Assembly: GCA_964592385.1 (NCBI GenBank)
Contig: CAZQEQ010000002.1
Coordinates: 25,441-89,440 of the forward strand
DNA from: an uncultured candidatus Brocadiaceae bacterium
GTDB lineage: Bacteria; Planctomycetota; Brocadiia; SM23-32
Length of the DNA: 64,000 bases
Direction: 5' to 3'
Under the pieces are notes generated by a model, which had not been told where the DNA came from, searched no databases, and worked only from the letters and a program-made list of their open reading frames with translations. The stretch's first letter is position 1, and every line of letters begins with the position of its first letter. This document shows positions 3,001 through 53,504 of the stretch, piece by piece. The translations under genes and the position numbers were made by a program.

Positions 3001-4120
3001 GTGGCCGACCGTCATCGAGATAGACCCGGCCGACTACGACCCGCTCCAGGGCGCCGCGTGGCGCGGCAACCTGCTCCGCGCGGGCACGTTCGAGACGCGC
3101 GGCGTCCGCCGGCTCAAAGGCCCGAAGTGGAAGTTCGAGACCGGCGGCCCGGTCGAGAGCTCGCCCGTGGTCACCGGGGGCGTCCTCTACGTGGGAAGCC
3201 ACGACGGCTTCTACGCCCTCGACGCCGGGACCGGCGAGCAGAAGTGGAAGGTGGACGTCCGGGGAGGCGTCAAGTCCTCGGCCTGCGTGGCTGGCGGCAC
3301 GGCCTTCTTCGGCGGCAACGACGGCAAGCTCTGCGCGGTGGACGCGGCGGGCGGCGAGGTCCGGTGGACGGCGCAGGGCAACGAAGCGCTGACCACCTCC
3401 CCCGCCGTGGCCTACGGCGTCGTCTTCGTCGAGGGCGCCTGGGGCTTCGACCCCGAGACTGGGAAGCAGGTCTGGACCACCAGCCGCGGGAGGCTGCGCG
3501 GGCAGGGCGACGCCCGCCGCAGCTCGCTCCTCGTCGCACCCGGCGGCGTCCTCTACCAGAACGGCTCGCCCTGCGACATCGTGACGGCCCGCTTCACCAG
3601 CGGCGACGGCGACACCTGGGCCAGCCAGAACACCGAGGCCCTCTGGGAGGACATGTTCTTCACGACCAACAGCGGCGTCGGCGGCGCCGTGAACCTGCCC
3701 ACACTGGTCGCGACCGACCTGGAGACCGGCCGCAAGAAGTGGAGCCGCGAGATCGTCCTGCCCGGGCAGTCCGTGGCCGAGCGGAAAGTAGTGCTCTGTT
3801 CGCCCGCCGTCTGGAACAACAAGGTCTACATCGGCTTTGACGGCGGCGCGCTCTTCGCCTTCGACGCCCTGCGCGGCAGCGACCTGTGGACCTTCAAGGC
3901 GCGCGACGCCATCCGCTCCTCGCCCTCGATATCGGCCGAGGACGGCGTCCTCTACGTCGGCTCGCACGACGGCAACGTCTACGGCCTCGACGCCGAGACC
4001 GGCGAGGAGCTCTGGCGATTCAAGACCGGCGGCAAGGTGACCTCCTCGGCGTGCGTCGCCGACGGCGTCGTCTTCATCGGCAGCGAGGACGGCACTATCT
4101 ACGCGCTCGAGGGCGAGTGA
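29..4120 (+). CDS. Large lipoprotein: unknown N-terminal region, two tandem FGE-sulfatase (SUMF1-like) domains, C-terminal PQQ/BamB-like beta-propeller
   Basis: 1363-aa ORF. The N-terminus MAVVALLAFTAGC is lipobox-like. Two internally duplicated segments each carry GDMGSM, W(Y/H)D..(A/L)..CN.LSEMEG..PCYY, GYRLPT.AE, THPVG, N..GLYD..GNV(W/Y) motifs typical of the formylglycine-generating-enzyme fold. The last ~350 aa are repeated blades of the form VLYVGSHDG..YALDA.TGE..W. Confidence 0.8.
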   Translation: MITRSSACRPCMAVVALLAFTAGCTTARGQEEAAPEVRGALSPEGVTVDPLIAEGEAPPPVWAPAAPQQETTRPYRCRIVSYADKWTRHGFSNYMWWRHPNGPVGERAPDSELYSLTHDLDVDGDGRTEDDYVASLVFSLTEPLSIPDWPMAMAFPERRSSRFYGGVSWYVSNSTPEQSRFWVEQGYNPDHSPPFYDARAEDHPLQGQANEKVVDSFHRHYWAIVWKKDDFLNDGDRYRVTFDETSRLASMCTRNYWLGYDDVRMIVQDGEQLYISDTEQFDIPTKGYAPMRGRVFLLYPTVATWAEYEPRDHFIHFDHARARFARHEFTDVRAVGWYLAKDRLQGKQSHIKWYGFEADAVVHRPAQGSVNIDMVKVPATEGVPEFYAATCELPYLVWRDIHRYGDSPFHTLEARYVYRKDGDMGSMLFGERPHGPDEPATNFTWYDALAICNTLSEMEGKEPCYYVDAEFNEVFRNVHVATHAVGPDYTERNLKNPTYEEVPEPVVHVKWDASGHRLPTVAEWRAAAGNAGPGWVAQNSEGTTHPVGRSKPNERGLYDAIGNVWELVWTHGDAFDPEQADAQVALGGDFHHPHDPTSASAAASPYGDEPYDGGHNIGLRLVCREKGLGRPAMGAAPGQPGYSADPVPAWSFRRDERTAARTEEAEPETPVLDMAALEGGQFVRFPERNTITVAPLDVAKYPTTYAQWKRVLQWAEANGYTFSKTGDMGSMYWYAFTHRPDEPVVQLTWHDMLVWCNALSEMEGRTPCYYEDEECTEVYRSAFTYRALKVDGPELVAAEPHRYAEYSAYAQPWLFVRWDTDGYRLPTEAEFEYALRGGTQTNYFWGTDDAKKDDYTWNILNAGGRTHPVGQKQPNPFGLYDVQGNVYQWLFSRYRTRIPGRPPELDTNNPKQNPYLSWRQPKELYSPPGAGMLVAGGSFLYGNFNVNGQHGVTVDSQNSVNALCYYPDVGFRVVRCEAGTHPRDGLEPLAEWPTVIEIDPADYDPLQGAAWRGNLLRAGTFETRGVRRLKGPKWKFETGGPVESSPVVTGGVLYVGSHDGFYALDAGTGEQKWKVDVRGGVKSSACVAGGTAFFGGNDGKLCAVDAAGGEVRWTAQGNEALTTSPAVAYGVVFVEGAWGFDPETGKQVWTTSRGRLRGQGDARRSSLLVAPGGVLYQNGSPCDIVTARFTSGDGDTWASQNTEALWEDMFFTTNSGVGGAVNLPTLVATDLETGRKKWSREIVLPGQSVAERKVVLCSPAVWNNKVYIGFDGGALFAFDALRGSDLWTFKARDAIRSSPSISAEDGVLYVGSHDGNVYGLDAETGEELWRFKTGGKVTSSACVADGVVFIGSEDGTIYALEGE

Positions 4121-4126
4121 GGGGCC

Positions 4127-5050
4127 TCAGTCGCCCGCGCCCTCTGCCGGACGTCGGGCGACGGCCGCGCCAGCGTGTTTGACCCGCACCTTGTAGACGG
4201 ACTTCCGCGCGGTCACGTACAGCGTGCGCCCGTCGGCGTCGCCGAAGGCCAGGTTCGCGGGCCGCTCCTCCATGCGGATGGTCTCCAGGTGCTCGCCCTT
4301 TGGGCTGACGATCCAGACGCCGTCGTAGGCCGTGATGTAAACGTTCCCCTTCACGTCCACCTTGATGCCGTCCGCGCCGAGCCTCTCGGGCCGCTCGGTC
4401 CGGATGAAGACACGGTCGTTCGCCAGCGACCCGTCCTCCTTCACGTCGAACGCGCGCAGGCAGTCCTTCTCCGTGTCCGCCACGTAGAGCACCTTCTCGT
4501 CGGGGGAGAAGGCAAGCCCGTTCGGCATGGCGAAGTCCCGGACCGCCAGCGTGAGCTTGCCGTCGGGACCGATGCGGAAGACGCCCTGGAAGTCCAGCTC
4601 GCGCTGCTCGGCGCGCACCCCGTACGGCGGGTCGGTGAAATAGACGGACCCGTCGGACTTCTCGACCAGGTCGTTTGGGCTGTTGAGCCGCTTGCCCTCG
4701 TACTGCGAGGCGAGCGAGGCCGCCACGCCGTCCTCGCCTGTGAGTGAGACCCGGCGGTTTCCGTGCTCGCAGGCGACCAGGCGCAGGTTGCGGTCGAATA
4801 TCAGCCCGTTCGAGTTGCCGCTGGGGCGCCGATAGACCTCCGGCCCCTTCTCGCCGAGCCGGTAGATCGTGTCGGCGGGAATGTCGCTGAAGACCAGGTA
4901 GCCGTCCGGGTGCCAGGCCGGCCCTTCGGTGAACTGGAGCCCCGTCGCCACACGCTCCAGCTCGCCGGCCACGAGCGACTCCTCCTGGGCGGGCGCCGCG
5001 GCAACCGCCGCAATCAGCAGGACAACCATGACCATCATCAACTCCTGCAT
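4127..5050 (-). CDS. SMP-30/gluconolactonase/LRE-like secreted protein
   Basis: 307-aa ORF with a hydrophobic signal peptide (MVMVVLLIAAVAAAPA). Motifs EGPAWHPDG, LNSPNDLV, GSVYFTDPPYG, PNGLAFSPDE and ADGIKVD match the six-bladed lactonase family. GGAGGG lies upstream of the ATG at 5050. Confidence 0.85.
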   Translation of the reverse strand: MQELMMVMVVLLIAAVAAAPAQEESLVAGELERVATGLQFTEGPAWHPDGYLVFSDIPADTIYRLGEKGPEVYRRPSGNSNGLIFDRNLRLVACEHGNRRVSLTGEDGVAASLASQYEGKRLNSPNDLVEKSDGSVYFTDPPYGVRAEQRELDFQGVFRIGPDGKLTLAVRDFAMPNGLAFSPDEKVLYVADTEKDCLRAFDVKEDGSLANDRVFIRTERPERLGADGIKVDVKGNVYITAYDGVWIVSPKGEHLETIRMEERPANLAFGDADGRTLYVTARKSVYKVRVKHAGAAVARRPAEGAGD

Positions 5051-5069
5051 CGTTCCCTCCTACGCTTTG

Positions 5070-5172
5070 CTGAGCCTCGCGGACTAGAGTCACTCAACCG
5101 AACCTCGGGACAATACCTCCAAGACAGGGGTCTTCCTTCCTGCTCACTTCGTCATCCTCTCACGCGGGCCTC
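5070..5172 (-). repeat. Intergenic repeat R1, copy a (about 103 bp)
   Basis: The reverse complement aligns over about 100 bp with 8551-8652 (roughly 83% identity by eye). It includes the core ATTGTCCCGAGGT(C/T)CGGT(C/T)GAGT and the end GTCCGCGAGGCTCAG. It sits immediately upstream of the RBS/ATG of the 4127-5050 gene. Confidence 0.8.
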
Positions 5173-5227
5173 CGTAACGGTACTGAGCCATTATCGGTTC
5201 GCCCCGCCGGTGCGCAACGACGTCTGT

Positions 5228-5445
5228 TCGTCCCGCAGGGACGATTGATAGCAGCCCACCGATTCATCGGTGGGGGCCGATGGTTCACCTCCCGCCAGTC
5301 CCGTAGGGACGGCTGAACGTCTGGCGGGCCGGCGTCCCGTGCGTTGCCTCATTTCAGCCGTCCCTACGGGACTGGGCCTGTTGCGGTTCGGCCGGAGTCC
5401 CAGCAGTGAACTGCTGGGCTATTGTCACGCCGCCCCTCCGGGGCG
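5228..5445. repeat. REP/BIME-like hairpin cluster forming a ~218-bp imperfect foldback
   Basis: A perfect 23-bp inverted repeat, CCAGTCCCGTAGGGACGGCTGAA (5295-5317) and TTCAGCCGTCCCTACGGGACTGG (5353-5375), is flanked by two inverted copies of a two-hairpin unit (5228-5274 and 5399-5445). Example hairpins are CCCACCGA-TTCA-TCGGTGGG and CCCAGCAG-TGAA-CTGCTGGG. Confidence 0.8.
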
Positions 5446-5508
5446 CCACGAACCGGACATCGCCCGGTCACCGTCCGGCCGCCCCTCCGGCGCGCCGGGC
5501 GCCGTGAC

Positions 5509-5536
5509 ATTATAGTCCGTCAGGCCACGGCGACAA
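5509..5536 (-). promoter_or_regulatory. Candidate sigma70-like promoter reading into the hairpin cluster and the lactonase-like gene
   Basis: The minus strand reads TTGTCG-N16-TATAAT (plus-strand cgacaa at 5531-5536 and attata at 5509-5514). It would give a ~450-nt structured leader. It is only hexamer matching. Confidence 0.35.
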
Positions 5537-5552
5537 ACTGTGGCTGCCAGGG

Positions 5553-7301
5553 TCATGCCTCCGGCTCGTGGGGCGCCGGTTGCAGGGCCGCCAGGGTCTC
5601 CCTGACGTCGGGGCTTCGGTCGGCCCGCGCTATGCGCTCCAGGTGCGGAACGGCGGCCGGGTTGCCCGCCTTGCGCAGCGCCAGGAGCAACCTCCTCTGC
5701 CGGTCGCGGAGCAGCCCGCCGTACCCGGTCAGGGCGGGCACAGCGGGGCCGACGTCGCGCCTGAGGATGCGCGCCAGCGCGCGGACGTCGAGGCCGGGAT
5801 ACCTGCGCTCCTCGAGGAGGAAGGCGACGGCGGCCTCGTCGTTCGACCAGCCCAGCGCCCGTATCGCCGCCCTCCGGACTCGCCGGTCGAGCGTGCTCCG
5901 GTACGCCATGAGCAGGGGCTCAGCCCCCCCGGATCCCGGCCCCGGCGGGACGGCCGTGAGCGCCTGGAGCCTCTTCCGCGTCGCGCTTTCCCACGCGAAG
6001 GACGCCGCCAGCACAACCGCCGCCGCCGCGCACGCCAGATAGACGGCGTCGAAGCCGCTGACCAGGCCGGCGCCGGCAGCGATCACCAGAAGGCCGTACG
6101 GAACGGCGGCCGCCAGGACGGCCTTCGCGACGTTCCCCGCCTGCACGGCGAGCGAAATCGCCAGCCCCGCAGAGAGAGCGGTCGCGACGCCCAGCCCGAT
6201 GACGATGCTCCCCCGGCCCACGAACTCGAGCCACTCCCCCGTCTGCACGACGAGCAGGTACGAGGCCGGCAGGCCGACCGACCAGATCATCAGCGTCGCG
6301 AACGCGCCCAGCAGGCCGTGCCGCCAGCAAAGGTAAACGCTCGCCGCGCCGAGCACCAGCCAGACGCAGACGGGCAGCACGAAGTGGGCGAAGCGGTAGC
6401 CGCGCGTCACCAGCGCCTTCACCCGCCCGACGTCCAGCAGGCCCGCGCCCAACATGCCTTCTCGGAAGAGGTCTGAGTCGATGGGACGGGCCGTCGAGGC
6501 GACGACGCGGAACGCCTCGGCCGGGGAGAGGTCCGGCGAGTGGGCCAGCACGTAGGCGACCGTGGCCGCCACGCGCGGGGCGGCGAAAGAGGTGCCGCGC
6601 GCCTCCATCTGCCGCAGCAGCCATTCGTGCGGCAGGAACTCGCAGTCGATGAAACTGACGTCCCCCGAGGCTGCGATGTCCACGTGCGGACCGTAGTTGG
6701 AGCGGAGCGCCTTGCCGCCCGGCGTCGCGCTGGCGACGGCTATCACGTCGGGGTAGGCGGCGGGGTACCCGGGCGCGTCCGTGTCGTCGTTGCCCGCCGC
6801 CGCCACGACGAGGACCCCCGCGGCCGCCAGGCGCCCTATCAAATCCTCCTCCTCGGCGCCGGGCTCGGGCGAGGAAAGGCTGACGTTGACGACGACGCGC
6901 GCGTCCGGGTGTCTCCCGACGTAATCGAGGACGGAGCGGAGGCCGTCCAGGTAAACTTCGCGGTCGATGCCTTCGCCCAGGCCCTCAACGGGAACGGAGA
7001 CGAGGCGGGTGCGGCAATAGCTGAGGATGACCCGCGCCACCAGGCTGCCGTGGGTCACGTCGGAGGCCTGGAGGCCGGCCACGCGGCCCTCGACGAAGTC
7101 ACGGTCCACCTCCGAGTCGAGCACGAAGATGACCGGCGCCCGCTCGTCCGCCGGCGCCCGGGGGGAGCAGCCGACCGCCAGGACGGCCAGCCAGACAAGG
7201 TACACGCGCCAGGTCACGGTCCGCCCTCCACGCGTCGGGCGCCCCGCCCGCCGCACAAAACGGCTGACAGCATGAAGCGCGGAGACCGCGGAGAACAACA
7301 A
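5553..7301 (-). CDS. Subtilase (S8) domain fused to a polytopic membrane region and C-terminal HEAT-like repeats
   Basis: 582-aa ORF. The signal is lipoprotein-like (LAVLAVGCS). Catalytic-triad contexts are VLDSEVD (Asp), THGSLVA (His) and GTSFAAPRVA (Ser). About 6 hydrophobic helices follow, then HEAT/PBS-lyase-like repeats (RRAAIRALGWSNDEAAVAFL, GNPAAVPHLERIA, SPDVRETLAAL). The exact start is uncertain. Confidence 0.8.
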   Translation of the reverse strand: MLFSAVSALHAVSRFVRRAGRPTRGGRTVTWRVYLVWLAVLAVGCSPRAPADERAPVIFVLDSEVDRDFVEGRVAGLQASDVTHGSLVARVILSYCRTRLVSVPVEGLGEGIDREVYLDGLRSVLDYVGRHPDARVVVNVSLSSPEPGAEEEDLIGRLAAAGVLVVAAAGNDDTDAPGYPAAYPDVIAVASATPGGKALRSNYGPHVDIAASGDVSFIDCEFLPHEWLLRQMEARGTSFAAPRVAATVAYVLAHSPDLSPAEAFRVVASTARPIDSDLFREGMLGAGLLDVGRVKALVTRGYRFAHFVLPVCVWLVLGAASVYLCWRHGLLGAFATLMIWSVGLPASYLLVVQTGEWLEFVGRGSIVIGLGVATALSAGLAISLAVQAGNVAKAVLAAAVPYGLLVIAAGAGLVSGFDAVYLACAAAAVVLAASFAWESATRKRLQALTAVPPGPGSGGAEPLLMAYRSTLDRRVRRAAIRALGWSNDEAAVAFLLEERRYPGLDVRALARILRRDVGPAVPALTGYGGLLRDRQRRLLLALRKAGNPAAVPHLERIARADRSPDVRETLAALQPAPHEPEA

Positions 7302-7380
7302 GACAAAGGAATGCAGAACATCTTATCCCGGCTCTGCGGTCTCTGCGCTCTCTGCGGTGAATCCGTTTTGCCCGGCGTTC

Positions 7381-8157
7381 TCACGCGTCCACAATGCATC
7401 CGCGCAGGTAGGCGGCGAAGCGGCTGACGCCGCCGACCGGGTCCTCCGGCTCCTCGTACTCGATGGACAGGTAGCCCCGGTAGCCGGCCTCGCGCATGAT
7501 GCGGACCACCTTGCGGTAGTCCACCTGCTCGCGCCCGTCGCCCTGCCGAACGGTCACTTTGGCGTGGGTCGTGACGGTGCTGGGGGCGCACCGCGTGTAT
7601 TGCCCGTAAATGTCGCCCGTGAAGTTGCCGAAGTCCAGGTTCAGGCCGACCCAGGGGTCGTCCGCCATGTGCTCGATCAGGTCGAGGACGCCGGCGGCGT
7701 CGGAGGTCAGTCCGCCGTGGTTCTCCAGGGCCAGGACAACGCCGGCTACGGCGGCGATTCCGGCGCACTCGGCCAGGCCGTCGCGGACCCACCCGCGCGC
7801 CGTCGCCTCGTCAACGCCGTCCGGCTGCGGGCCGGCGAAGACGCGCAGCACCGGGGAGCCGAGCCGGGCCGACTTGACCAGCCAGTCCTTGACGTGCTCG
7901 ATCTGCTTGCGGCGCGCGTCGGCGTCGGCGTTGCTGAAGTTGCCCCCGACGGCCGTCCCGCTCACCTCCAGGCCCCGCCTGAAGACCTCTCGCTTCATGT
8001 AGTTCAGGTACTCGTCGGTTTCCTGGGGGAAGTAGTACTGGGTCAGCTCGACTCCGTCGAATCCGAGCTCGACGCACGTGTCCAGGAAGGACTCCATGCT
8101 CATCCCGCCCGCTTTCAAAAGGTCCCTGTACGAGTATGCACAAGTCGCCAGCTTCAT
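7381..8157 (-). CDS. Sugar phosphate isomerase/epimerase (xylose isomerase-like TIM barrel)
   Basis: The ORF track gives 7381-8196. I prefer the ATG at 8157 (MKLATCAYSY), which is preceded by CAGGAGGGCGGC. Motifs GFDGVEL, LRVFAGP, LALENHGG, LNLDFGNF and GYLSIEYE are typical of the family. Confidence 0.85.
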   Translation of the reverse strand: MKLATCAYSYRDLLKAGGMSMESFLDTCVELGFDGVELTQYYFPQETDEYLNYMKREVFRRGLEVSGTAVGGNFSNADADARRKQIEHVKDWLVKSARLGSPVLRVFAGPQPDGVDEATARGWVRDGLAECAGIAAVAGVVLALENHGGLTSDAAGVLDLIEHMADDPWVGLNLDFGNFTGDIYGQYTRCAPSTVTTHAKVTVRQGDGREQVDYRKVVRIMREAGYRGYLSIEYEEPEDPVGGVSRFAAYLRGCIVDA

Positions 8158-8721: not shown

Positions 8722-8830
8722 GGGGCGGCCCGCCACACGTTCAGCCGTCCCTGCGGGACTGGCGGGGGGTAGGCCATCGGTTCCCACCGATGAATCGGTG
8801 GGCTATTATCGGGCGTCCCTACGGGACGGA
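8722..8830. repeat. Hairpin-cluster module R2, inverted copy of 5228-5332
   Basis: The reverse complement aligns with 5228-5332 at roughly 85% identity by eye. It contains CCCACCGA-TGAA-TCGGTGGG (8783-8802), GGGCGTCCC-TAC-GGGACG, and TTCAGCCGTCCCTGCGGGACTGG. Confidence 0.75.
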
Positions 8831-30276: not shown

Positions 30277-30351
30277 TTCCCGGTGGTGTAATTGGTAACA
30301 CAGCAGGTTTTGGTCCTGCCATTCCTGGTTCGACTCCAGGCCGGGAAGCCA
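30277..30351 (+). tRNA. tRNA-Gln (anticodon UUG)
   Basis: The cloverleaf was folded by hand. Acceptor TTCCCGG/CCGGGAA (U1-A72). D arm GTGT-AATTGGTA-ACAC. Anticodon arm GCAGG-TTTTGGT-CCTGC. T arm CCTGG-TTCGACT-CCAGG. Discriminator G and encoded CCA. The 3' half closely resembles E. coli tRNA-Gln. Confidence 0.9.
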
Positions 30352-35972: not shown

Positions 35973-38900
35973 CTACTCGGCCTTTGCAGCATTCTCCTCA
36001 AGCATGACCTCAACGCCGCTAATAACCGGTGTCGTCGTTGAGTTGACCTTCCTGGACTTAGGAATAAGTTCCAGGGTTACGCTATTCTTGGCGAGGATGC
36101 CTTTGAATTCCTTCACCAGAGCCCGAAACTTGCCGCCCGTGGCCTTCACAATGTCGAAGTCCCGCAGCACCGTCTCCCCCTGCAATCTTACGTCGAAGAT
36201 GCGTTCGCCAGCTCTCACGTCGTCTATCTCAGCGAAGTGCAATCGCATCGTGTACGTCTTTGCCAATCTGTTCGGGAGCCGGAGGATCAAAGGCGGGAAG
36301 TATTCCCTCCTCGCCGTGTTCCAGCGCGGGGCCGGGGGCGGCGTTTTCACTTTGCCGCTTTTGTCAAACTTGACTTGCAGGAGCTCTTTCCTCAGGCCAA
36401 TCGCAGCCAATGTATCCCAGGGGATGGCCATTTCAGCAGTAAGAGCATCCTCCGTTGTCCGCGTGGCGACCGACCAGTCCCCGTTCCAGTCCGTATCTTC
36501 CTCAACGACAGCATTGGCCTTCGCTATGCTGTATACCCGGAGCCACTCTCCGTAGTCAACTCCCGCAGGTCGGCTCGGCTCGCCAGACAAACGAAGGCGA
36601 CACATGTCCTTCAGGTCTCTGGCAACGTACTTCCCCCAGCCGGCCTCAAGCTGGTCCCCCTGGTAGAAGATGATCGGGAGGCCAACTTCGGCGCCGGCCG
36701 CCGGCGTGATATCCAGGTGCTCCCACGGGAAGCACGCTTCGACTACATAGGCCTTTTCTGTGTTGTTTTCAACGACCTCGAGCGCCGGCCCGGTCATGGA
36801 TTCGCCCAGGCCGTGGTGGACCGCATATGTCCGCTCCTTGGCAGACACATTAAGTTGAAGGAACGGCTCCACCCCGGGTTTGACTGCAACAAGCGCCATG
36901 CCAGCGGAACGCCGTTCCCGAGCAAAGGTCTCGCTCGTCGACTTCGCCAACAGCAGCAGCCCGTGGTCGTTCCAACCCAGTCGGCATTCCCCGTTGTCGA
37001 ATATGTTCACGCGGAACCCCCCGTCACCCCAGTCATCCGGTTTGCCGTCCAATGCGACCTTGTCCAGGCGCGGGATGTCGAACGCGTAGCTCCACAGCCC
37101 GTCATATCGTGCGCCGGAGGCCGAAACGCCGAGGTGGAGGACGTGCGGACTCTGTTTGTCCGTCATATACAGCTCAAACGAATCGTCTTTCCATACCGGT
37201 GCATCTTCCCCTTTGGTTTCAGCCTTCCAGAGTCTTGTGCCCCCGCGATGATCCACGTCCGCTGCTCGCTCGTAAGCAATGTAAAGACTGTCATCGTCGT
37301 GACGGAGCCGAATACACGCCTTTCCTTCGCGGAAAGACACCTGGGGGCTTTCGTCCCAACAGGGGTCGTGCAAATGCCCGTCAATTTGGGGCGGCCGCTC
37401 GCAGCCGAGAGACAAGGCCGACATCTCCTGGTCATAGATAGCCAGGTTCAGAGCCGCCCGTCTGAGACCCCGGTAACCGGAAGCATAAATCCAAGGGCGT
37501 TCCGTTCCCGTTATGGCCACCCGATCGGCATCGAAACGATACGGTCCGAATGCTCCGCCGCGAAGAACGTGGAACGGCACCCCGAGAGACGTCCTTTCAT
37601 GACCTCCCCCGCGCCCCGTGCTCCCCACTTCCATGCCGAAACCCGGACGAGGCATGCCCAGCCAGAGAACGCCCTCGTCATCCCGACGGTCGCCAGGTGC
37701 GCCCAGGTTCAAAGCCGCGTGTCGCAGCGGCGATCCCAGCACGTCGGTGTGGTCAGAAAAGACCCCCCAGTCCTCATTCTTCCGAGTCCTTGTGGGCACC
37801 AGGGCCAAAGAACACTCAAAATTGTAAGAGCACGAGCACCCAAGGCTTCCTTCGCTCGAAATGAGTAATCCAAAGGCTGGCATCAAGCTCACCGGGCCTG
37901 CCCTGCCCCCACACGAAGGCCTTACGCCGCCGAAGTGGCGCAGGCCGCTATCGTCGACGTAGTCGTAAATCCCAAGTGTGGCGGACCGAAAGAAATCTGC
38001 TGCCGCCGAAGAGAGAATTCCGCCACAACCAGCGGTTCGTACGTAGAAGTGCCCCCTCTTCTCGCCGGTAAGCGGATGGGTGTTCTGGCCGAAGTTTCCC
38101 CTGTCCTTTGAAGAGCGTTCAGGCATGCGTCCCCATTGGCGTGCCCACTCCGGCGCTTCTTGCAATGGCATCGCCTTGAGCAGCCGGCCGGTCTGTGCAT
38201 CATGCTGATAGCATACGGAGCCGACATTCAGATACACGTGCTCATCATCTGCGGCCAGACTGTCAGGGAGACGCGCGTTCCCCTTAGAAAGGCCCAGCCA
38301 CACGTGCTCGTCGCCTTCGGCCGGACCGGCAGCGGCAAGGGGATGATCGATCGAAAGGTCCGTCTCCAGGGACCATAACTCAGTGCCGTTGTATGCATCC
38401 ATGGCAATAACGCGGTTATTTGACCCCAAAACAAAATACCGCCCATTGGCAGCCCTTGGGGTGCCGCACTCGGTCCTGGTGGCGATTCTGCCGGGGCCCG
38501 GACCGCCGAACCAGAGAAGCTCCAGCGGCCACTTCACGCGCTGATCGCACGTGACCTCCGAGTCCCAGTCGAATGCACCTGGGAGTTTTCCACGCACCAC
38601 GTGCAATGATTCGCCGCTGGAGCGGACCTCCGCAGCCGGCACCTCGCCATCCTTAAGCAATTTCTCAATACCGGACCGCGGTACCTGATCGAAGTACATG
38701 AGACCGCCGCACGGGCGGAGGACTCGATACAGATCCTTCCCACGTAAATCATCGCTTTCTCCGGATACGACAACGACATTCGCGAAGTAAGGAGCATACG
38801 GAAGGCTCGCGGCACTTTGCAGATACTGGACGACCAGGCGCGAACCATAAAGCTCCGTCGTGCCAAGCAGGCGGGCCCGCTCTTCTTGCACCTTCGACTT

Positions 38901-40301
38901 GTCGCCCAAGACGCTAACGACATGAAGCCCCGTTTTGCATGCCAGGGCTTCGGTGAAACCTGCGTCCGGCCGGCCAATGACAAGGGCATATCCCTTCGTT
39001 ATCCTTGACTGCTCGATCAGCTCGAGAAGGCCCGCCAGTGTTTCCGTTGCGTCCACGCCCTCCATGTTCGGTCTCGTCTTCACCGACGGCCCCGTTACCT
39101 TGCGCCCTTCCGGCGCGCTTTCCTCGCGCGGTTGGAAACAGTAGATCAACCCCTCGGTCGTTGCCACGACAAGTCGGCCATCTGCGACGGCGATCCCCCG
39201 CGCACGCCCCCGGACCCCATAGCGCCACATCTCTTTGCCATCAGAAGCCGCAGTCACGAGGTTTTCCTTACCCTCCAGCAGCGTCTCACGAGCCAGCACG
39301 CAATTGTCCGCCACAAACGTATGTTCCGCGTCGGGAACGATATCCCCGTTTGCAAGCGAATAAGCAAGAACCCCCTGTGGTTCCTGGCCATTGAAAAACA
39401 AAGCGTTTTCCTCGTCAATAGCCGTCCAGACTCCGCCAAGATGCGTCGTATGCCTGTAGTAGAGCAGCCGCCCGGTGGAGCGATCGTACGCCGCGGGGAG
39501 GGCCCTGCCGGTCGGAACCAGCAAAACGTCCTTGGAGGCAAGAACATATCCCTGCGGCGCGACCCCGGTAAGCGCGTAGGCATCGTGTGGCTGCATAATG
39601 TACATGTTGTCGCTCGTATCGTTACACCAAATGACCTCGCCGGTGTCGGCATCAAGAGCGTAGACATAGACACCTTCGGATGGCCACATGCCCGCGGTGA
39701 CGTAGCACGTTCCGCTATTAACGAGCACCCCGCTGCGGAGCGGCCAGCGCGAGATCATGCGGTCGTTCCCAAGAATCTGATCATCCCCTGGCGCAGCTTG
39801 AAACTGCCAAATCAGCTCCCCGGTAATCGCCTCCAGGCAATACACAAAACCGTCGTCGCAGGCGACGTAGCATTTCCCCTTTGCGACGTGTGGAGCGAAC
39901 CGCACCGGACCGCCGGTCGTGAATCGCCATCTGGCGTCCCCTGTGGCAACGTCCAGTGCCCGAACCGTATCGTCAGCTGAGGAGCCAAAATAGACCAGGC
40001 CGCCCGCGACGACCGGCTGGAGAACGTCGTCGAACTCGATGCGGTCGTGTTGCCGCCTCGAACCGTGCCCCCACGTGGCATCCGGCCAGGCAGGCCGGGG
40101 AGCCTGCCGAGGCTCATATACCCAGGCCAGGGCAAGAGGGAACTGGAGGTTCTCCGGCGTGGCGGCGCTCCTGGCCGCGTCTGCCCTGTAGCATGGCCAA
40201 TCGGAACCATAAACGTCAAAACCAAGCAGGAACCAACACGCCAGCGTAAGAAGTATGCAACGCTTCGCCCAAACTTTGCACATTATTGCCGCCTTTCTCA
40301 C
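35973..40301 (-). CDS. 1442-aa secreted multidomain protein: PQQ-like propellers, methyltransferase-like insert, CBM9/DOMON-like modules, C-terminal malectin-like domain
   Basis: The protein has a signal peptide and PQQ/BamB-like blades ([24 protein letters not shown]). A middle segment reads [33 protein letters not shown]9-like segment reads [12 protein letters not shown]...LYIAYE...DDSFELYM. The C-terminus, [36 protein letters not shown], is typical of malectin-like domains. G+C is visibly lower than in neighbouring genes. The start may be the GTG at 40301 or the ATG at 40283. Confidence 0.85.
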
Positions 40302-47169: not shown

Positions 47170-47233
47170 TCGGTCTCCCTCTTCTGCCTTGATGTCCTGG
47201 GCACACGAATTGTTCCCTGGCGTCACGCGCAGG

Positions 47234-49006
47234 CTACCGGTCCAGCAGGGAGTCGTTCAAAGTGAACTTCTGATTCAGGATTCTGAAAAGCGCCGCGGCC
47301 GCACGGAGGTCCTGCTTCCTCTGTTGCCCGCCTCCTTCCTCGGCCGGAGCAGGGATGTTCTCGAGAACGAGGATCGCCGCCTCTTTGGCGACAGGGAACT
47401 TGCGGAACTCGTATCCCATCTTGCCGACAGTCTGCTGACACATATTCCGGAGACGTGCTAAAATCGGAGGGTCCATCTTTGCCAACTCTATAGGCCCGGA
47501 CAGATCTTCGGGCAGTATCGCCCCTTCCCTGAGCGATTCGTGCACCCTACCGTAGTCATTGATGAAGGCTTGGCGATACAGTAGGCTTGGCACAAGGTCC
47601 TCAACAATGAACTGGATATCCGGGACCTCCTGGCCGTCGAACGCTTGTCCAGTGACGTACAGGCCCTGACAATCGGCCTCTCTGGCCTTCTTCAATGCAT
47701 CAAACCCGGCCGGGTCTCTGTCATAGACGGCAACTGCGCGAGCCCCCCGCCTCGTAGCGCGCACGCGAAGGTTGCCAAACTCGTTCTCTCCGGCGCCACC
47801 GCAGGGAATGACACTCGTCTTCGTCAGATCAAGGTGGTGGAGCCCTTGCGCCGCGCATGCCTGGCTCGATGCTACCAGGAGCATCTGGTCGGACATTCCC
47901 TCCACCAGGACGTTCCTTTCCGCCAGAAACAGGCTGTAGCCCAGCGGGAGTTGAAGAGCGCTCTGGATTGGCTCTTCGTGCAATCGCCGATATGGCTTGT
48001 TGTCCACTACAGAGACCGTTCCCTCCTTACCGACAAGACGCACCTGATGGATGCGATTAGGGTCGATCATGAAGGGAGAAGGGGTCGCATAGACGATCTG
48101 GCGTTTGCTGGCTGAATGCGCAGCCAAGTCCTGCAGGTACTGGCGCAACATGGCTTGGGCGGCTGGATGCAAGCCAGTCTCAGGTTCGTCCAGCAACAGA
48201 ACGCTCGGCGGGCCAGAGGACTTGGCCTGTGCCAGGACTTCGAGTTGCACGATCGTAGCCAGGAGAAGCGTCAGGCCGGAGCCGAGTTCGGAAGCCCTGA
48301 AATGCTCATGGCGTTCATCGCGGAAGAGTATCTCCAAGCGTCTGTCAGGAGTCGCGTAAGGCTCGACCTCGGGGCAACTGGGGATCAGCGCTCTGAGGAG
48401 ATCTGTCAGTCGATACCTAGTGCTGAGAAGCATCTCGCGTTGCCGTGTCTCCGGAGCGCGGAGCAGTTGCGCCGCGTGACAACCGCCGGCCTCCAATAGC
48501 CTGCGCACGACCACACTATCTTCTGCGTTGAGTTCCTCAAGGTTGTCCAGTGCCGCTGGAATTCGCTCCCTGGCATCCGGGTCGCTGAGATCCAGCAAGT
48601 GCACCTGTGGAAAGAACGTGTCGGCTTGTTCCCTCCTGAGCTGTCTATCCGTTGGGGTACCTGGAACGCCGGAGTCCACACGTCCCGCTCCTGGTGTATT
48701 CCACAAGGACACACGTTCCGGCGGCTGCGCAGTCCCGGTTAGCTGGCGGGTCTTCTTGCCCCTGCCTGGTCCCCCAGGTATGAACCACGTTGTGGAGACC
48801 TCCAGCCCCTCACTGGCTACTGTACCTTTCGTCGTGTCTGCTGCAACATCTAGCCTGCGTGGGTACCTGTAGGCCTCAAGCGCCCGGAGGAGGTTCGACT
48901 TGCCTGCATCATTAGGGCCGACGAAAACGGTGACATCGGGTTCGAAATAGATGGGTTGAGGGCTGAACCCTTTGTAGTCCCGCAACTCCATGCGTTCTAG
49001 GATCAT
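47234..49006 (-). CDS. OLD-family nuclease (ABC-type ATPase + Toprim)
   Basis: Walker A GPNDAGKSN, signature-like SELGSGLTLL and Walker B VLLLDEPETGLHP. The Toprim domain shows NVLVEGMSDQ and VAVYDRDPAG. I prefer the ATG at 49006, preceded by GGAGGAAAGG. G+C is about 53% on sampled lines. Confidence 0.8.
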   Translation of the reverse strand: MILERMELRDYKGFSPQPIYFEPDVTVFVGPNDAGKSNLLRALEAYRYPRRLDVAADTTKGTVASEGLEVSTTWFIPGGPGRGKKTRQLTGTAQPPERVSLWNTPGAGRVDSGVPGTPTDRQLRREQADTFFPQVHLLDLSDPDARERIPAALDNLEELNAEDSVVVRRLLEAGGCHAAQLLRAPETRQREMLLSTRYRLTDLLRALIPSCPEVEPYATPDRRLEILFRDERHEHFRASELGSGLTLLLATIVQLEVLAQAKSSGPPSVLLLDEPETGLHPAAQAMLRQYLQDLAAHSASKRQIVYATPSPFMIDPNRIHQVRLVGKEGTVSVVDNKPYRRLHEEPIQSALQLPLGYSLFLAERNVLVEGMSDQMLLVASSQACAAQGLHHLDLTKTSVIPCGGAGENEFGNLRVRATRRGARAVAVYDRDPAGFDALKKAREADCQGLYVTGQAFDGQEVPDIQFIVEDLVPSLLYRQAFINDYGRVHESLREGAILPEDLSGPIELAKMDPPILARLRNMCQQTVGKMGYEFRKFPVAKEAAILVLENIPAPAEEGGGQQRKQDLRAAAALFRILNQKFTLNDSLLDR

Positions 49007-49114
49007 GTTTCCTTTCCTCCGGTAGCGATAACGGTCCGGTGGTCGAGAGACACGGGATACATGCAACTCTGATGCAAATGGCGCAGGAGACCCAAGCTGG
49101 CATACGCCCAGACA

Positions 49115-49348
49115 TCATACCGAAACGGCTGCGTAGCGCAGGACGTCGATCTCGGCGCCGCGCCGCACGGCCTCTTCGGCCAACTCGTGTACCTGCGCGG
49201 TTACGTCATCCGACAGATAGTACTCGCCGCAGTTCTCGCACACCTGCGCGGGGACGTCCTTGATGATGACCGTGGTATCGTCACGCTCAAGGGTTACGGT
49301 CGCCGTCCCTCCGTGCGTGTTGCCCGTCTTGCAGATCGCGCACTTCAT
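49115..49348 (-). CDS. YgiT/MqsA-type zinc-ribbon protein (putative antitoxin, no HTH domain)
   Basis: 77 aa: MKCAICKTG...VTLERDDTTVIIKDVPAQVCENCGEYY. It has two CxxC pairs. The start overlaps the upstream gene's stop (ATGA). Confidence 0.8.
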   Translation of the reverse strand: MKCAICKTGNTHGGTATVTLERDDTTVIIKDVPAQVCENCGEYYLSDDVTAQVHELAEEAVRRGAEIDVLRYAAVSV

Positions 49349-49671
49349 GGTTGTCTCCTGTTTCTGAAATCCTCATCCCAGATCTGGGCATCTGGCTCAT
49401 AGGCCGTGACGACGATGGCAGTCCGTGTTTCCCTATCCACCGCGAGAACGACGTGGACAGGCCGGGACTCAGCGTAACCCAGGAGCAGTCGGCTCGGGTA
49501 AGGAGTGTCGTCGGGATAGTCTGCTATCACCTCGCCGTGGCGGATGACATTCAGCACGTGCTCGCTTGTCAGACCGCGCCGGAACATCCGTCTGACGGCG
49601 TGGCCGCTGAACAGGACTCTGTCGAACTGCCGGTTCCGGCTCGCGCCTGAGCTGGGCTCTTGGTCTGTCAT
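49345..49671 (-). CDS. DUF4258-like protein (putative toxin)
   Basis: This is the 3' 327 nt of the spurious 589-aa ORF 49345-51114, starting at the ATG at 49671. The sequence FSGHAVRRMFRRGLTSEHVLNVIRHGEVIADYPDDTPYPSRLLLGY...VHVVLAVD matches my recollection of DUF4258. Confidence 0.7.
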   Translation of the reverse strand: MTDQEPSSGASRNRQFDRVLFSGHAVRRMFRRGLTSEHVLNVIRHGEVIADYPDDTPYPSRLLLGYAESRPVHVVLAVDRETRTAIVVTAYEPDAQIWDEDFRNRRQP

Positions 49672-49980
49672 ACACTGTCCTATGCTTCCCGACACGTGAA
49701 GCCGGAGTGCGAGAGTCGATTCAGACTGTGCCGGACAGCACCAGTATAGGCGCGGCGGGCAGGCGGCGCAAGGCGAGCGCGGGAACGACGCAGACGGCGC
49801 TGCGCGGGGACGGGCCGATGCTGCTCGAAACCGTTTCTCTTGCGATGCTGCTTCATGTGTGCAAGAATCCCTGTAGCGCGTGCTTGCCGGGCGAGCTGTC
49901 CTCCTGTGCGCGCCGTTGCTGTCCTGCTCGGGGCAGGATGGTCCGTGTGGTTTCCTCATGTGGCACGGGGTTGGGAGCGC

Positions 49981-51921
49981 ATGAGCGTGGACTCCCTGAC
50001 AAGCGGGTCCGGCGCAAGTCCTGGCACGGTGCCGGGTTTGCGGCGCGGGCCCTCGTGGCGTAGCCTCTTGTGGGCGGGCGCGTGCTTTCTGTTCTTCCTG
50101 TTGTTCTTCCTGTACGTCTGGCTGCGCGTTGCTCCCGCGGGTCTCTACCATTGCCGATACATGGAGTTTCCTCCCTTCTCGCTGGGGGCGGTGTTCGTCA
50201 AGGAGTTCCTGGCGTATGCGGGCGGGCCCATCGAGTACGTGTCGGCGTTTCTGTCGCAGTTGTTCTACCTCTCTTGGGCCGGTGCTCTGATCATCACGGC
50301 GGTTGCCGCGCTGCTCTGCGTGGCGGCTTATGCGTCCTTTACGGCCTTTGGCGGCACTCGCCTTCCCGTGCTGTACTTCATTCCGGCCCTGCCGGTGTTG
50401 ATGCTGTACAGCCGGTACTCGCACGCCATGACGCTCGTCCTGGCGGTGTTGGCGTCGGTGCTGTGCATGGTCCTTTATGCGTCCCTGCCGCTGCGTCGTC
50501 CTGTCCTGAGGGCGGGGGCATTCCTGGTGCTCTCGTGCGCCCTCTGGTACGTGGCCAGTGGTGCATACGTGATCTTCGTCGTTCTGTGCGGCGCGCTGGA
50601 GCTTCTGACAAGGCGCCGGGTCCTGCTCGGTCTGGCCTGCGTTCTGCTTTCCCTGGTCGCGCCTCCGGTAGCGGGCACATATCTTCTCCCGATCACGATC
50701 GAAGATGCTTACGTGGGGGGCATGCGTTCGATGATCGGCCCGCACACCGGGGATCTGGCGGCCCTGATTGCCGTGGTCTGCTTGCTGGCCTTCTTTCCGA
50801 TAGTTGGCGTCGGAGTTGCGCTTTGGCACCGGCTGGGAAGGAGGGGGGCGGGCGTGGCTGGCAGTGCGGCGTCGACCCCTGAGCGGCCCAGGCAGCCGGG
50901 ACTCATGCACGTCCTCGTGTCGTCCGCAGTGGTCGCCGCGGGGCTTGTCGTGGTCTATTCCTTTTTTGACAGGGACTTGGGCACGCTCTGTCGAATGGAG
51001 TGTCTCTCGCGACGGGGCACGTGGGAGCGGGTCCTGCGTGAGGCGCGCCGTCTTTCCCCCGCGTGTGCCCGCGGCGAGCTGGCGACATGGAATGTCAACT
51101 GGGCCCTCTATCACACCGGCCGACTACCGTACGAGATGTTCTCTTACCCGCAACATGCTTACTCGCTCATCGGGACCAGCGAATACTACAGGAGATTCAA
51201 TTGGCGCGTGCCGACGTACGGCAAGTGCGCCGACGTGTGTTTCGAACTCGGGCTTGTGAACACGTCGGAACAGATGTCCCACGAGGCACTGTGGGTCGCC
51301 GGGGACTACGGACCGACGCTCTTGCAGCTTGCCCGGATATACATCCTCAAGGGGCAGCCTGAAGCCTCGCGCATGTTCCTGACGGCGGTGAGCAAGGACC
51401 TGGTATACGGATCGGCAGGCAGACGTTACCTGGAGTTGCTCAAGAGCGATCCCGAGCTTTCCACGGACCAGGAGGTGCAACGAGTACGGTCCCTGATGAT
51501 GCACACGGACCTGCCCCATTCGTCCTTTGAGGGCAGGCTGTTGGAGCTGCTGAGAACGAACAGGCAGAACCGGATGGCTTTCGAGTACCTGATGGCGGTC
51601 TACCTGCTGACGGGTCAGATCGAGAAGCTCGCCATGAACATGGAGCGCCTGGACGACTTCGCATACCCCGACGTTCCGCGTCATTACGAGGAAGCGCTCT
51701 TGCTGCACACTGCCATGACGGGCAGGGCGGCTGACCTGGGGGCACGGCGCATCAGCCCGCAGACGATGGCGCGATTTCAGCATGTCAATCGCGTGCTTGC
51801 CGATTGCAGGGGCAACCGGGCGGCAGCCCTGGGTGTCCTTGCCAGGCAGCACGGTGACACCTACTTCTTCTACTATCTGTTGCACTTCGCGTCCGCGCCT
51901 GCCAGGGGGACGAGCGGATGA
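49981..51921 (+). CDS. Polytopic membrane protein (~10 TM helices) with C-terminal TPR-like helical domain, unknown function
   Basis: I prefer the ATG at 49981. The N-terminal ~370 aa are hydrophobic helices. The C-terminal ~270 aa form helical repeats (LLQLARIYILKGQPEASRMFLTAV..., AFEYLMAVYLLTGQIEKL). The family may be DUF6057-like, from memory and unverified. Confidence 0.7.
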   Translation: MSVDSLTSGSGASPGTVPGLRRGPSWRSLLWAGACFLFFLLFFLYVWLRVAPAGLYHCRYMEFPPFSLGAVFVKEFLAYAGGPIEYVSAFLSQLFYLSWAGALIITAVAALLCVAAYASFTAFGGTRLPVLYFIPALPVLMLYSRYSHAMTLVLAVLASVLCMVLYASLPLRRPVLRAGAFLVLSCALWYVASGAYVIFVVLCGALELLTRRRVLLGLACVLLSLVAPPVAGTYLLPITIEDAYVGGMRSMIGPHTGDLAALIAVVCLLAFFPIVGVGVALWHRLGRRGAGVAGSAASTPERPRQPGLMHVLVSSAVVAAGLVVVYSFFDRDLGTLCRMECLSRRGTWERVLREARRLSPACARGELATWNVNWALYHTGRLPYEMFSYPQHAYSLIGTSEYYRRFNWRVPTYGKCADVCFELGLVNTSEQMSHEALWVAGDYGPTLLQLARIYILKGQPEASRMFLTAVSKDLVYGSAGRRYLELLKSDPELSTDQEVQRVRSLMMHTDLPHSSFEGRLLELLRTNRQNRMAFEYLMAVYLLTGQIEKLAMNMERLDDFAYPDVPRHYEEALLLHTAMTGRAADLGARRISPQTMARFQHVNRVLADCRGNRAAALGVLARQHGDTYFFYYLLHFASAPARGTSG

Positions 51922-53504
51922 GCAACCGCGTCAGGACGGTGTTGCTGCTGTGTGCGCTCCTGGCCTTGCTTGCGGGCGGCCTTGTCCTGCACGGGGTTCG
52001 ACCTGAGGCCCCCGCAGTTGCGCAGTGCGAGCGCACGCGCCGGATGCCCAGGATTCGCCCGGACTATGTCGGGACGGTCATCCCTCCGAACATTGCCCCC
52101 CTGAACTTCCTGGTGGAGGAGCCGGGCACGCAGTACTGTGTCAGGATATCCTCCAGGCAGGGCGAGCCGATCGAGATTCTCAGCAAGACGCCTCAGATCG
52201 TGATTCCCGAAGGGCCGTGGAAGATACTGCTGGACCTCAATCGTGGCGAGGAACTGCAGTTTGACGTTCTCGCAAAGGGGGCGGACGGGCAGTGGCGTCG
52301 CTTCGATGCCATAACAAACACGGTCTCCACCGCCCCCATCGACAGCCACCTGGTCTATCGACTTCTCGGAACGGGCTACATCGACATAGCTGACTTGGGC
52401 ATCTACCAGCGGGACGTCGAGGGCTATGCAGAGAACCTCATCTTCCACAACAGGTCCATGGGTGGCGGATGCATCAACTGCCACACGTTTCTCAACGGCG
52501 GAACGTCCGACATGATACTGCACGTCAGGGGCGACCAGTGCGGATTCGCCATGGTGATGGCCCGCGACGGCGACGTCATCAAGGTCGACACGCGGACCGA
52601 GCACAATCCTGCGCCGGCGGCCTACAGTTCCTGGCATCCCAGCGGGCGGGTGGCCGCCTTCTCCGTCAACAAGATAAGGCAGTTCTACCACACGATCGGC
52701 CACACCCGAGAGGTCTACGACGCTGACTCCGACGTGTGCCTCTACCTCGTGGACTCGGCGACCGTGACGAGCACGGCAGCGCTCTCGGACCCCGGGCGCC
52801 GGGAGAACTGGCCAGCGTGGTCGCCGGACGGGGAGTATCTGTACTTCTCCAGCGCGCCCGATCTGCCGCGCGAGCGTTTCGAGGACATCAAGTACGACCT
52901 GATGCGGATCAGCTACGACGTGGAGACCGGCCAGTGGGGCAAACTGGAGACCGTGCTGTCTGCCGGGGAAACGGGACTCAGCATGAACCAGCCAAAAGTC
53001 TCTCCGGACGGCCGGTTCCTGCTGTTCTGCATGTCCGACTACAGCAGCTTCCCCCTTGACCGGGCAAACAGCGATCTGTACATGATGGCGCTGGGAACGC
53101 GCAGGTACTGGCGCCTGGAAATCAACAGCGACAGTAGCGAGGCATGGCATTGCTGGTCGAGTAACGGACGTTGGATCGTCTTCAGCAGCAGGAGGCTTGA
53201 CGGCGTCTTCACGAGGCCGTTCTTCAGCTATATTGATGAGGACGGGAACGCCCACAAGCCGCTGCTGCTTCCCCAGAGGGACCCGGCGTTCTATGACACC
53301 TTCCTCCAGATGTATAACGTCCCGGAACTCGTCAAGGAGCCTGTCCGGGTGAGTGCGCGAGAACTCGGCCGAGCCATAAGCGGGCCTGCGGTGTCGGTCT
53401 CTCCTGCGGCGGTTACCGGCGCCACCCCCCGCGCCAAGGCAAAGGCGAGTCCTGCAACGGCGTCGTCTCCGGACGCCGGTGAGCCTCCGATCCCACGGCA
53501 ATAG
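51918..53504 (+). CDS. Signal-anchored protein with a single CXXCH motif and TolB/PD40-like beta-propeller repeats
   Basis: The start overlaps the upstream stop (ATGA). It has an N-terminal anchor (LLLCALLALLAGGLVL) and the motif GGGCINCHTF (CXXCH). PD40-like repeats include WSPDGEYLYFSS, VSPDGRFLLFCMSD and WSSNGRWIVFSSRR. Confidence 0.7.
   Translation: MSNRVRTVLLLCALLALLAGGLVLHGVRPEAPAVAQCERTRRMPRIRPDYVGTVIPPNIAPLNFLVEEPGTQYCVRISSRQGEPIEILSKTPQIVIPEGPWKILLDLNRGEELQFDVLAKGADGQWRRFDAITNTVSTAPIDSHLVYRLLGTGYIDIADLGIYQRDVEGYAENLIFHNRSMGGGCINCHTFLNGGTSDMILHVRGDQCGFAMVMARDGDVIKVDTRTEHNPAPAAYSSWHPSGRVAAFSVNKIRQFYHTIGHTREVYDADSDVCLYLVDSATVTSTAALSDPGRRENWPAWSPDGEYLYFSSAPDLPRERFEDIKYDLMRISYDVETGQWGKLETVLSAGETGLSMNQPKVSPDGRFLLFCMSDYSSFPLDRANSDLYMMALGTRRYWRLEINSDSSEAWHCWSSNGRWIVFSSRRLDGVFTRPFFSYIDEDGNAHKPLLLPQRDPAFYDTFLQMYNVPELVKEPVRVSARELGRAISGPAVSVSPAAVTGATPRAKAKASPATASSPDAGEPPIPRQ

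Follow-up and report, generated by a model that had tools for sequence, protein, structure and literature searches.

Do a toxin-antitoxin cassette and a nuclease gene that stand side by side on one strand make up a single defence system, or are they separate elements that came to share a site? The locus that raises this question lies in an uncultured candidatus Brocadiaceae bacterium (contig CAZQEQ010000002.1, positions 25,441 to 89,440), and we call the whole 64,000 nucleotides (nt) analysed the window. Three open reading frames (ORFs) are adjacent there on the minus strand: a DUF4258-family toxin gene (49345..49671, 108 amino acids, aa), a gene for a YgiT/MqsA-type zinc-ribbon antitoxin (49115..49348, 77 aa), and a gene for an OLD-family ATPase with a Toprim nuclease domain (47234..49006). 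A first-pass annotation of the window had placed the genes at these positions, and had reported the 4-nt ATGA overlap at 49345-49348, where the toxin stop codon meets the zinc-ribbon ATG, and the 108-nt gap between cassette and OLD gene (49007-49114). Our ORF check of the window agrees on all counts. The annotation also raised the prospect of a three-gene defence unit, and there our results go the other way. We consider it highly probable that the block consists of two independent modules of known kinds, adjacent by insertion and not by function, which together make a small defence islet.

Co-occurrence tests

Co-occurrence was tested in both directions, from the cassette and from the OLD gene. 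The DUF4258 set held 149 loci (80 species-level genome loci and 69 viral contigs), and the OLD-type set held 60 loci with the same type of OLD C-terminal region (56 metagenome and four viral). Neighbours of the cassette were grouped by all-against-all BLAST clustering, and phmmer was used to look specifically for HsdM, HsdS and type IIG genes. An OLD-type Toprim region was found at none of the 149 DUF4258 loci, and neither DUF4258 nor YgiT was found at any of the 60 OLD-type loci. The cassette is absent from all three of the closest OLD lineages, and OLD is absent from all three of the nearest cassette relatives. Even a weak ABC-ATPase match occurs at only 2/149 DUF4258 loci, one to a Toprim-less, HEC-02B-like protein and the other 4 kb off on the opposite strand.

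The clustering method does detect conserved neighbours, finding for instance an MG2-domain protein at 39 loci of distant OLD-like genes. That neighbour had been expected to be GajB and so to provide a positive control; it is really an MG2-domain protein, and the set is not Gabija.

These results bear directly on the alternative that the three genes are one lineage-specific defence operon, in which the toxin-antitoxin pair senses infection or controls OLD, or the reverse. We regard this as very improbable. The first-pass annotation had named two grounds for giving up a unit, lack of co-occurrence and independent mobility, and both are borne out. Besides the absence of co-occurrence (0/149, 0/60, 0/3 and 0/3), it has to face evidence of independent mobility, since the cassette homology stops at the YgiT stop codon, and a phyletic spread that differs greatly between the parts. 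In its favour, the identical three-gene arrangement is present in at least four independent metagenome assemblies of one population, but these assemblies carry one and the same sequence, so the arrangement counts as a single observation. A degenerate H-loop in the OLD protein, described below, might reflect a transfer of control to a partner, and there are proposals elsewhere of multi-gene systems in which an ABC ATPase is joined with a BECR toxin (ptuXYZ, PMC11980606).

Some facts do weigh against independence. The genes share one strand, with a 108-nt spacer and no detectable terminator, so they may be co-transcribed, as a single unit would be. Beyond the window's own, the close OLD clade comprises just three lineages, which makes 'never with the pair' a statement about a small sample. 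No strain that lacks one module and no empty site was found; the order of insertion, and independence within this lineage, are therefore read from other genomes.

Several other loci are of interest. L045 (629-2533) has a DUF4258/YgiT pair and, 340 nt beyond it, a gene for a 352-aa ATPase that lacks Toprim and matches the PADLOC HEC-02B model (E 4e-132), so that here too the cassette sits by a candidate defence gene. The OLD-type genes of the metagenome loci L116-L135 (28-29% identity to the window protein; e.g. L116 6001-10137) lie in a chromosomal neighbourhood that is conserved and includes genes for an MG2-domain protein and a phosphoribosyltransferase, which suggests that these homologues are lineage-fixed and possibly not devoted to defence. 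At 55 viral loci within L182-L240 (e.g. L182 3044-5140) an ABC-ATPase distantly related to the OLD ATPase is followed by a conserved C-5 cytosine DNA methylase.

Extent of the mobile unit

The nearest relatives of the cassette have 63-70% amino-acid identity to it. Their nucleotide identity is 73-75% over 517 nt across both genes and 29-44% on either flank; past the YgiT stop codon it is 29-39%, and the break falls exactly there. What moves, therefore, is the two-gene pair, without the spacer and without OLD. The two modules also differ in their spread. More than 430 relatives of the toxin, at 50-70% identity, were found across phyla (Planctomycetota, Brocadiia, Acidobacteriota, Desulfobacterota, cyanobacteria, spirochaetes and one Methanotrichaceae archaeon), whereas the clade of the window OLD is tiny, with four proteins at E ≤ 1e-30 and three clusters at E ≤ 1e-100 in an exhaustive HMMER search of 1.84 billion representative proteins.

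Each module has other company elsewhere. The nearest cassette relatives are flanked by hsdM and hsdS in type I restriction-modification operons (L312-L315: L312 1123-4511, L313 198-3651, L315 262-3694) or stand among hypothetical genes (L310), and at L052 another cassette comes directly after a type IIG enzyme. An HsdM-like neighbour was found at 4/80 genome cassette loci. The closest relatives of the window OLD are 43-48% identical to it, and no conserved neighbour is common to the window and the three sister OLD lineages. Two sister proteins, P0003 and P0004 (61% identical to each other), are encoded directly 3′ of a type IIG/DrmMI-like restriction-methyltransferase gene. At L005 this gene (1258 aa, 2206-5982) is separated by 18 nt from OLD (6001-7779), at L008 (2-1396) it overlaps OLD (1393-3171) by 4 nt, and L006 and L007 have the same arrangement. 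The methyltransferases of the L005 and L008 types are only 27% identical to each other, and methyltransferase-OLD may be a conserved two-gene arrangement. At L001 the OLD gene sits between MgsA and a PDDEXK_3 gene. The tendency of the cassette and, separately, of the OLD clade to lodge beside defence genes fits ordinary defence-island clustering.

The same neighbours can be read in another way, namely that the two mechanisms are independent while the cassette serves as an addiction module that stabilises the islet and keeps a costly or decaying OLD gene from deletion. Type II toxin-antitoxin cassettes are established stabilisers of islands and plasmids (reviewed in PMC2701414), relatives of this cassette are found inside the operons of type I restriction-modification systems and next after a type IIG enzyme, and the composition of the OLD gene is foreign. 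At most DUF4258/YgiT loci, though, no neighbour can be recognised as a defence gene, and adjacency alone cannot separate stabilisation from chance clustering. We think stabilisation of this kind unlikely here.

Toxin-antitoxin cassette

Both family assignments of the first-pass annotation hold. The toxin matches DUF4258 (PF14076) at E 3.8e-23, with 82 bits against a 25-bit cut-off, and it has all 15 columns that are invariant in a 33-sequence alignment, including H24, R32, Y52, D55, H73, Y91 and W98. The antitoxin matches the YgiT_finger model TIGR03831 (E 5.7e-14) and retains the four zinc-binding cysteines (CAIC...CENC). Its lack of a helix-turn-helix (HTH) domain is confirmed by the MqsA_antitoxin profile, where the match covers positions 1-59 of 131 and no more. 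For both small proteins, searching the PDB by sequence returned noise only.

DUF4258 is one of 13 BECR-fold toxin families of the RelE/ParE superfamily, and no member of it has so far been characterised experimentally (PMC11980606); a 2026 bioRxiv preprint places it in the Colicin-like/Ntox49 branch. From this placement we infer that the window protein is a BECR-fold, RNase-like toxin. Its pairing with an MqsA-type zinc ribbon is already described, 17 DUF4258-MqsA fusions having been catalogued (Gerdes 2025, PMC11980606).

A YgiT-like partner was found at 146/149 DUF4258 loci; of the 80 genome loci, at least 70 have it as the next gene downstream in the same orientation. Its length is nearly always 70-80 aa (median 75 aa); none reaches 110 aa, and the protein is never HTH-sized. 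Overlaps of 4 nt or 1 nt predominate at the toxin/partner junction, 4 nt being the commonest. No third neighbour family is common to more than 5/80 genome loci in the all-against-all BLAST clustering. Such constant pairing, with no third family widely shared, marks the cassette as an autonomous pair.

The OLD enzyme

The OLD gene starts with the ATG at 49006 (MILERMEL...), its N-terminus agrees with those of homologues, and its 590-codon frame is intact. Family membership is well supported (AAA_15, E 7e-20; AAA_21, E 2e-18; PADLOC 'Old', 2.7e-24), as the first-pass annotation had proposed, and the motifs that it quoted are all present. In the ATPase domain these are Walker A, GPNDAGKSN (K36, 48893..48919, minus strand), and Walker B with the D-loop, VLLLDEPETGLHP (D273, E274 and H280, within which LLLDEPE; 48164..48202, minus strand); the N-terminus resembles the YbjD/DUF2813 type. 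The C-terminal region, residues 355-590 (47237..47944, minus strand), was delimited from alignment to TsOLD of Thermus scotoductus, conservation and a structural model, and comprises the Toprim domain and a C-terminal helical bundle. The Pfam model OLD-like_TOPRIM gives E 3.3e-4 and 21.6 bits, slightly under its 23.2-bit cut-off.

Loss of the Toprim catalytic residues on proper alignment had been named as a ground for doubting the nuclease. They are retained. NVLVEGMSDQ holds E369 and D373, and VAVYDRDPAG holds D429 and D431; the metal A ligands E369, D429 and D431 align with E377, D431 and D433 of TsOLD, and D373 aligns with D381. E469 and D470, invariant or nearly so across the family, are likely to be the remaining metal B ligands beside D373. 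In the helical part R535 and K536 are invariant in the clade, where BpOLD has its catalytic K562, and either is a candidate general-acid Lys/Arg.

Sequence and profile searches of the PDB gave TsOLD (6P74) as the best match, followed by GajA and the ATPases of retrons and Septu. A whole-chain AlphaFold2 model (predicted local distance difference test score, pLDDT, 80.8) gave the same first match in Foldseek (6P74, E 2.2e-15, 588 columns), then GajA chains. The whole-chain template modelling (TM) scores are only 0.33-0.37, which we attribute to a different relative orientation of the domains. When the C-terminal region was modelled alone (236 residues, pLDDT 78.7) the best matches were the class 2 regions 6NJX, 6NK8, 6NJV and 6NJW (E 2e-4 to 9e-4, TM 0.43-0.54 over about 240 columns), and TsOLD came sixth (9.8e-3). 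Helices follow the Toprim core at residues 474 to 589 of the model, whose confidence here is moderate.

Published OLD classes are defined on genetic context (PMC10568477, PMC12392090), and by genetic context the window protein is class 1. Annotation of 10 kb to either side and an Rfam scan show a lone gene without a dedicated partner. A Toprim region free of the class 2 helical domain would also be expected of class 1, and here the helical domain is present, with model and match both of moderate quality. This suggests, with moderate support from modelling, that the boundary between classes 1 and 2 may not be purely structural.

One residue, overlooked at first pass, sets this protein apart. 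Its H-loop codon is CCT (48080..48082, minus strand), which makes residue 309 proline (YATPSPF). Among the 120 best homologues aligned, the position is histidine in 119 and proline in the window OLD only; the remaining catalytic residues of the two domains are all conserved. Sequencing error does not explain Pro309, because at least four assemblies made independently encode exactly this protein. Changing the corresponding histidine to alanine removes ATPase activity from TsOLD (H310A), though not its nuclease activity in vitro, and stops killing by P2 Old (H332A); some class 1 OLDs naturally have asparagine at the H-loop (PMC7049728). We predict from sequence that the window OLD probably binds ATP without hydrolysing it: the intact Walker A and B motifs make binding likely, and Pro309 predicts the loss of hydrolysis. 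The substitution argues against hydrolytic activity and not against descent from the OLD family. A second candidate ATPase defect, R241L (arginine in 116/120), was dropped since TsOLD itself has leucine there (ELGLG).

Pro309 prompts the suggestion that OLD is a disabled or decaying copy, its ATPase catalytically dead, and that only the cassette is active. The substitution is unique among the 120 homologues, the TsOLD and P2 Old mutants show what the loss of this histidine can cost, and defence by VcOLD requires Walker A and B. On the other side stand the intact 590-codon frame and the otherwise complete set of catalytic residues. Nor does every OLD depend on hydrolysis, since GajA functions without splitting ATP and the anti-phage phenotypes of YbjD survive a Walker A mutation (PMC10568477, PMC13261556). 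The nuclease activity kept by TsOLD ATPase mutants in vitro, and the natural asparagine variants, tell against decay as well. We consider a disabled OLD doubtful, if well worth bearing in mind.

A further suggestion takes up the class 1 context, the class 2-like C-terminal region and the type IIG/DrmMI-like genes of the sister loci. The window OLD would belong to a distinct, very rare lineage whose upstream partner is swappable, a type IIG/DrmMI-like enzyme in the sisters and DUF4258/YgiT in the window, where the H-loop histidine was lost as control passed to the partner. We give this very little credence.

Base composition and insertion traces

The first-pass annotation, from hand counts, had put the OLD gene at about 53% G+C and the pair at about 60%, among flanking genes of about 70-80%, and had taken the block for a horizontally acquired, low-G+C islet. 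Its low G+C is real, the 2.4-kb block being among the lowest 0.4% of sliding G+C windows. The contrast is smaller than the hand counts gave: OLD is at 59.1%, DUF4258 at 60.6% and YgiT at 62.8%, against 66.6% for the whole window, and the neighbours run from 62.8 to 70.8% (PD40 62.8%, DUF6057 63.2%, GH43 68.4%, GH172 70.8%). Over the flanking genes as a whole, G+C is 62.8-74.2% and G+C at third codon positions (GC3) is 0.79-0.97. GC3 is 0.67 for OLD, 0.71 for DUF4258 and 0.82 for YgiT, and the window mean is 0.855 ± 0.073 (37 ORFs). The OLD gene was probably acquired horizontally, because its GC3 is about 2.5 standard deviations under this mean. DUF4258 is low and YgiT is ordinary, and only OLD is a clear outlier. 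The edges of the islet are less sharp than first described.

Traces of insertion were sought at the edges. The block is flanked by no direct repeats beyond chance 12-24-mers and by no att-like repeats. The tRNA gene nearest to the block in a window scan is at 30277, and none marks the edges. For the flanking DUF6057 gene, no homologue comes closer than 44% identity; synteny there extends over the DUF6057-PD40 pair alone, and the upstream side differs.

Low composition is not confined to the block. A second low-G+C stretch, at about 35.4-40.3 kb and not related to defence, surrounds a gene for a 1442-aa protein with PQQ beta-propeller, CBM9-like and malectin domains (35973-40301, minus strand), whose GC3 of 0.68 is as low as that of OLD.

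Signals and surrounding genes

A candidate sigma-70-like promoter for the cassette, TTGCGC-17 nt-TATACT, can be read at 49743..49771 (minus strand), 71 nt 5′ of the DUF4258 ATG; it is put forward on reading the sequence only and falls under the threshold of a consensus scan. The cassette-OLD spacer (49007..49114, minus strand), the seam at which cassette homology stops, contains a ribosome-binding site, GGAGGAAAGG, ahead of the OLD ATG. Neither a terminator-like hairpin nor any unusual structure was seen in it (fold z-score +0.71). Promoter and terminator scans of the block gave no signal above shuffled expectation. Past the OLD stop codon, a 64-nt gap (47170..47233, minus strand) leads to a same-strand string of GH43, GH172 and URO-D genes. 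The terminator scan detected nothing in this gap, so read-through from OLD into the string is possible.

The gene directly downstream of OLD is the GH43 glycoside hydrolase, and GH172 and URO-D complete that side within 10 kb. On the other side are two DUF6785 copies, a Y-family polymerase, a PD40/Tricorn-like protein and DUF6057. The annotation within 10 kb to either side includes no helicase, reverse transcriptase, separate or split Toprim gene, integrase or transposase, and the Rfam scan found no match to a retron RNA family in the window.

Two features of the surroundings stand apart from the block. The genes for a DUF6057 membrane protein and a PD40/Tricorn-like protein (49981-53504, plus strand) form a pair that is kept in distant relatives (L173 8001-11534 and L174 1015-4529, 39-44% identity); DUF6057 homologues occur in Planctomycetota and Limisphaerales. 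The Acido-Lenti-1 RNA motif (Rfam RF01687) has three copies above its gathering threshold, at 5229-5274 (minus), 5399-5445 (plus) and 8783-8828 (plus). With the DUF6057 homologues, these motifs hint that this deep-branching, high-G+C lineage, which lacks close database relatives, belongs to the PVC group or Acidobacteriota.

Proposed mechanism and significance

If, as we favour, two independent modules meet here, the first would be a mobile two-gene type II toxin-antitoxin cassette. Its DUF4258 toxin, putatively an RNase, would be neutralised by direct binding of the 77-aa zinc ribbon. The antitoxin has no DNA-binding domain, so any autoregulation must differ from that of MqsA. The second would be a stand-alone OLD enzyme in which the ABC ATPase acts as sensor or regulator and the two-metal Toprim nuclease as effector, nicking or degrading nucleic acid upon activation by phage, as may be supposed from TsOLD, P2 Old and VcOLD. 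Having intact nuclease ligands, the window OLD might be a nuclease regulated by nucleotide binding, like GajA, or might be attenuated. The cassette presumably landed beside OLD, or OLD beside the cassette, much as such cassettes do beside restriction-modification genes elsewhere.

What the catalogue gains is a divergent OLD gene of class 1 and a DUF4258/YgiT cassette of the usual type, which in itself matters little. Same-strand adjacency is not evidence of a system. Of use to specialists is that DUF4258/YgiT cassettes, and separately this OLD clade, are repeatedly embedded beside restriction-modification enzymes. A natural OLD with proline for the H-loop histidine and an active site otherwise intact is a ready-made test of the need for ATP hydrolysis in class 1. 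The tiny clade, with a class 2-like C-terminal region and no helicase, blurs the context-based boundary between class 1 and class 2.

Comparison with known systems

The cassette is typical of DUF4258/MqsA-type pairs, toxin first and genes overlapping, with no difference of substance. The toxin-first order, reported correctly at first pass, is shared with E. coli MqsR/MqsA (YgiU/YgiT), as is the N-terminal CxxC...CxxC zinc ribbon. The toxin is DUF4258 and not MqsR (PF15723), however, and the antitoxin has 77 aa instead of 131 and no Xre-type HTH. With no C-terminal HTH, operator binding of the MqsA kind is not expected.

Among OLD enzymes the class 1 proteins (P2 Old, TsOLD 6P74, VcOLD and E. 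coli YbjD/OldB) likewise have neither a helicase nor a reverse transcriptase nor a split partner. The closest in sequence and in whole-chain fold is TsOLD, yet its identity is only about 18%, and the window C-terminal region (about 220-236 residues) ends in a helical bundle that TsOLD lacks. The H-loop has proline in place of histidine. Class 1 genes are isolated according to a 2023 review, whereas the window OLD adjoins another defence-type module.

The C-terminal region alone fits class 2 OLD/GajA best, being Toprim plus helical, with the conserved K536 in the helical part, where K562 stands in BpOLD; the structures concerned are the C-terminal regions of the B. pseudomallei and X. campestris OLDs (6NK8, 6NJV-6NJX). 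The first-pass annotation had excluded canonical Gabija and PARIS, and we concur. Unlike Gabija, the window has no UvrD/PcrA/Rep-like gajB gene downstream of OLD or within 10 kb of it, and the match to B. cereus GajA is weak in sequence (E 0.09 with the single sequence, 1e-14 with a profile).

PARIS (AriA/AriB, class 4) and retron Eco8 (class 3) are built of the same parts as the window OLD, an ABC ATPase and a Toprim domain, and the PADLOC AriA and GajA models match the OLD ATPase domain. In contrast to PARIS, the window has ATPase and Toprim fused in one 590-aa protein and no DUF4435 partner; retron Eco8 differs in having a reverse transcriptase and a retron RNA, neither of which is present at the window locus.

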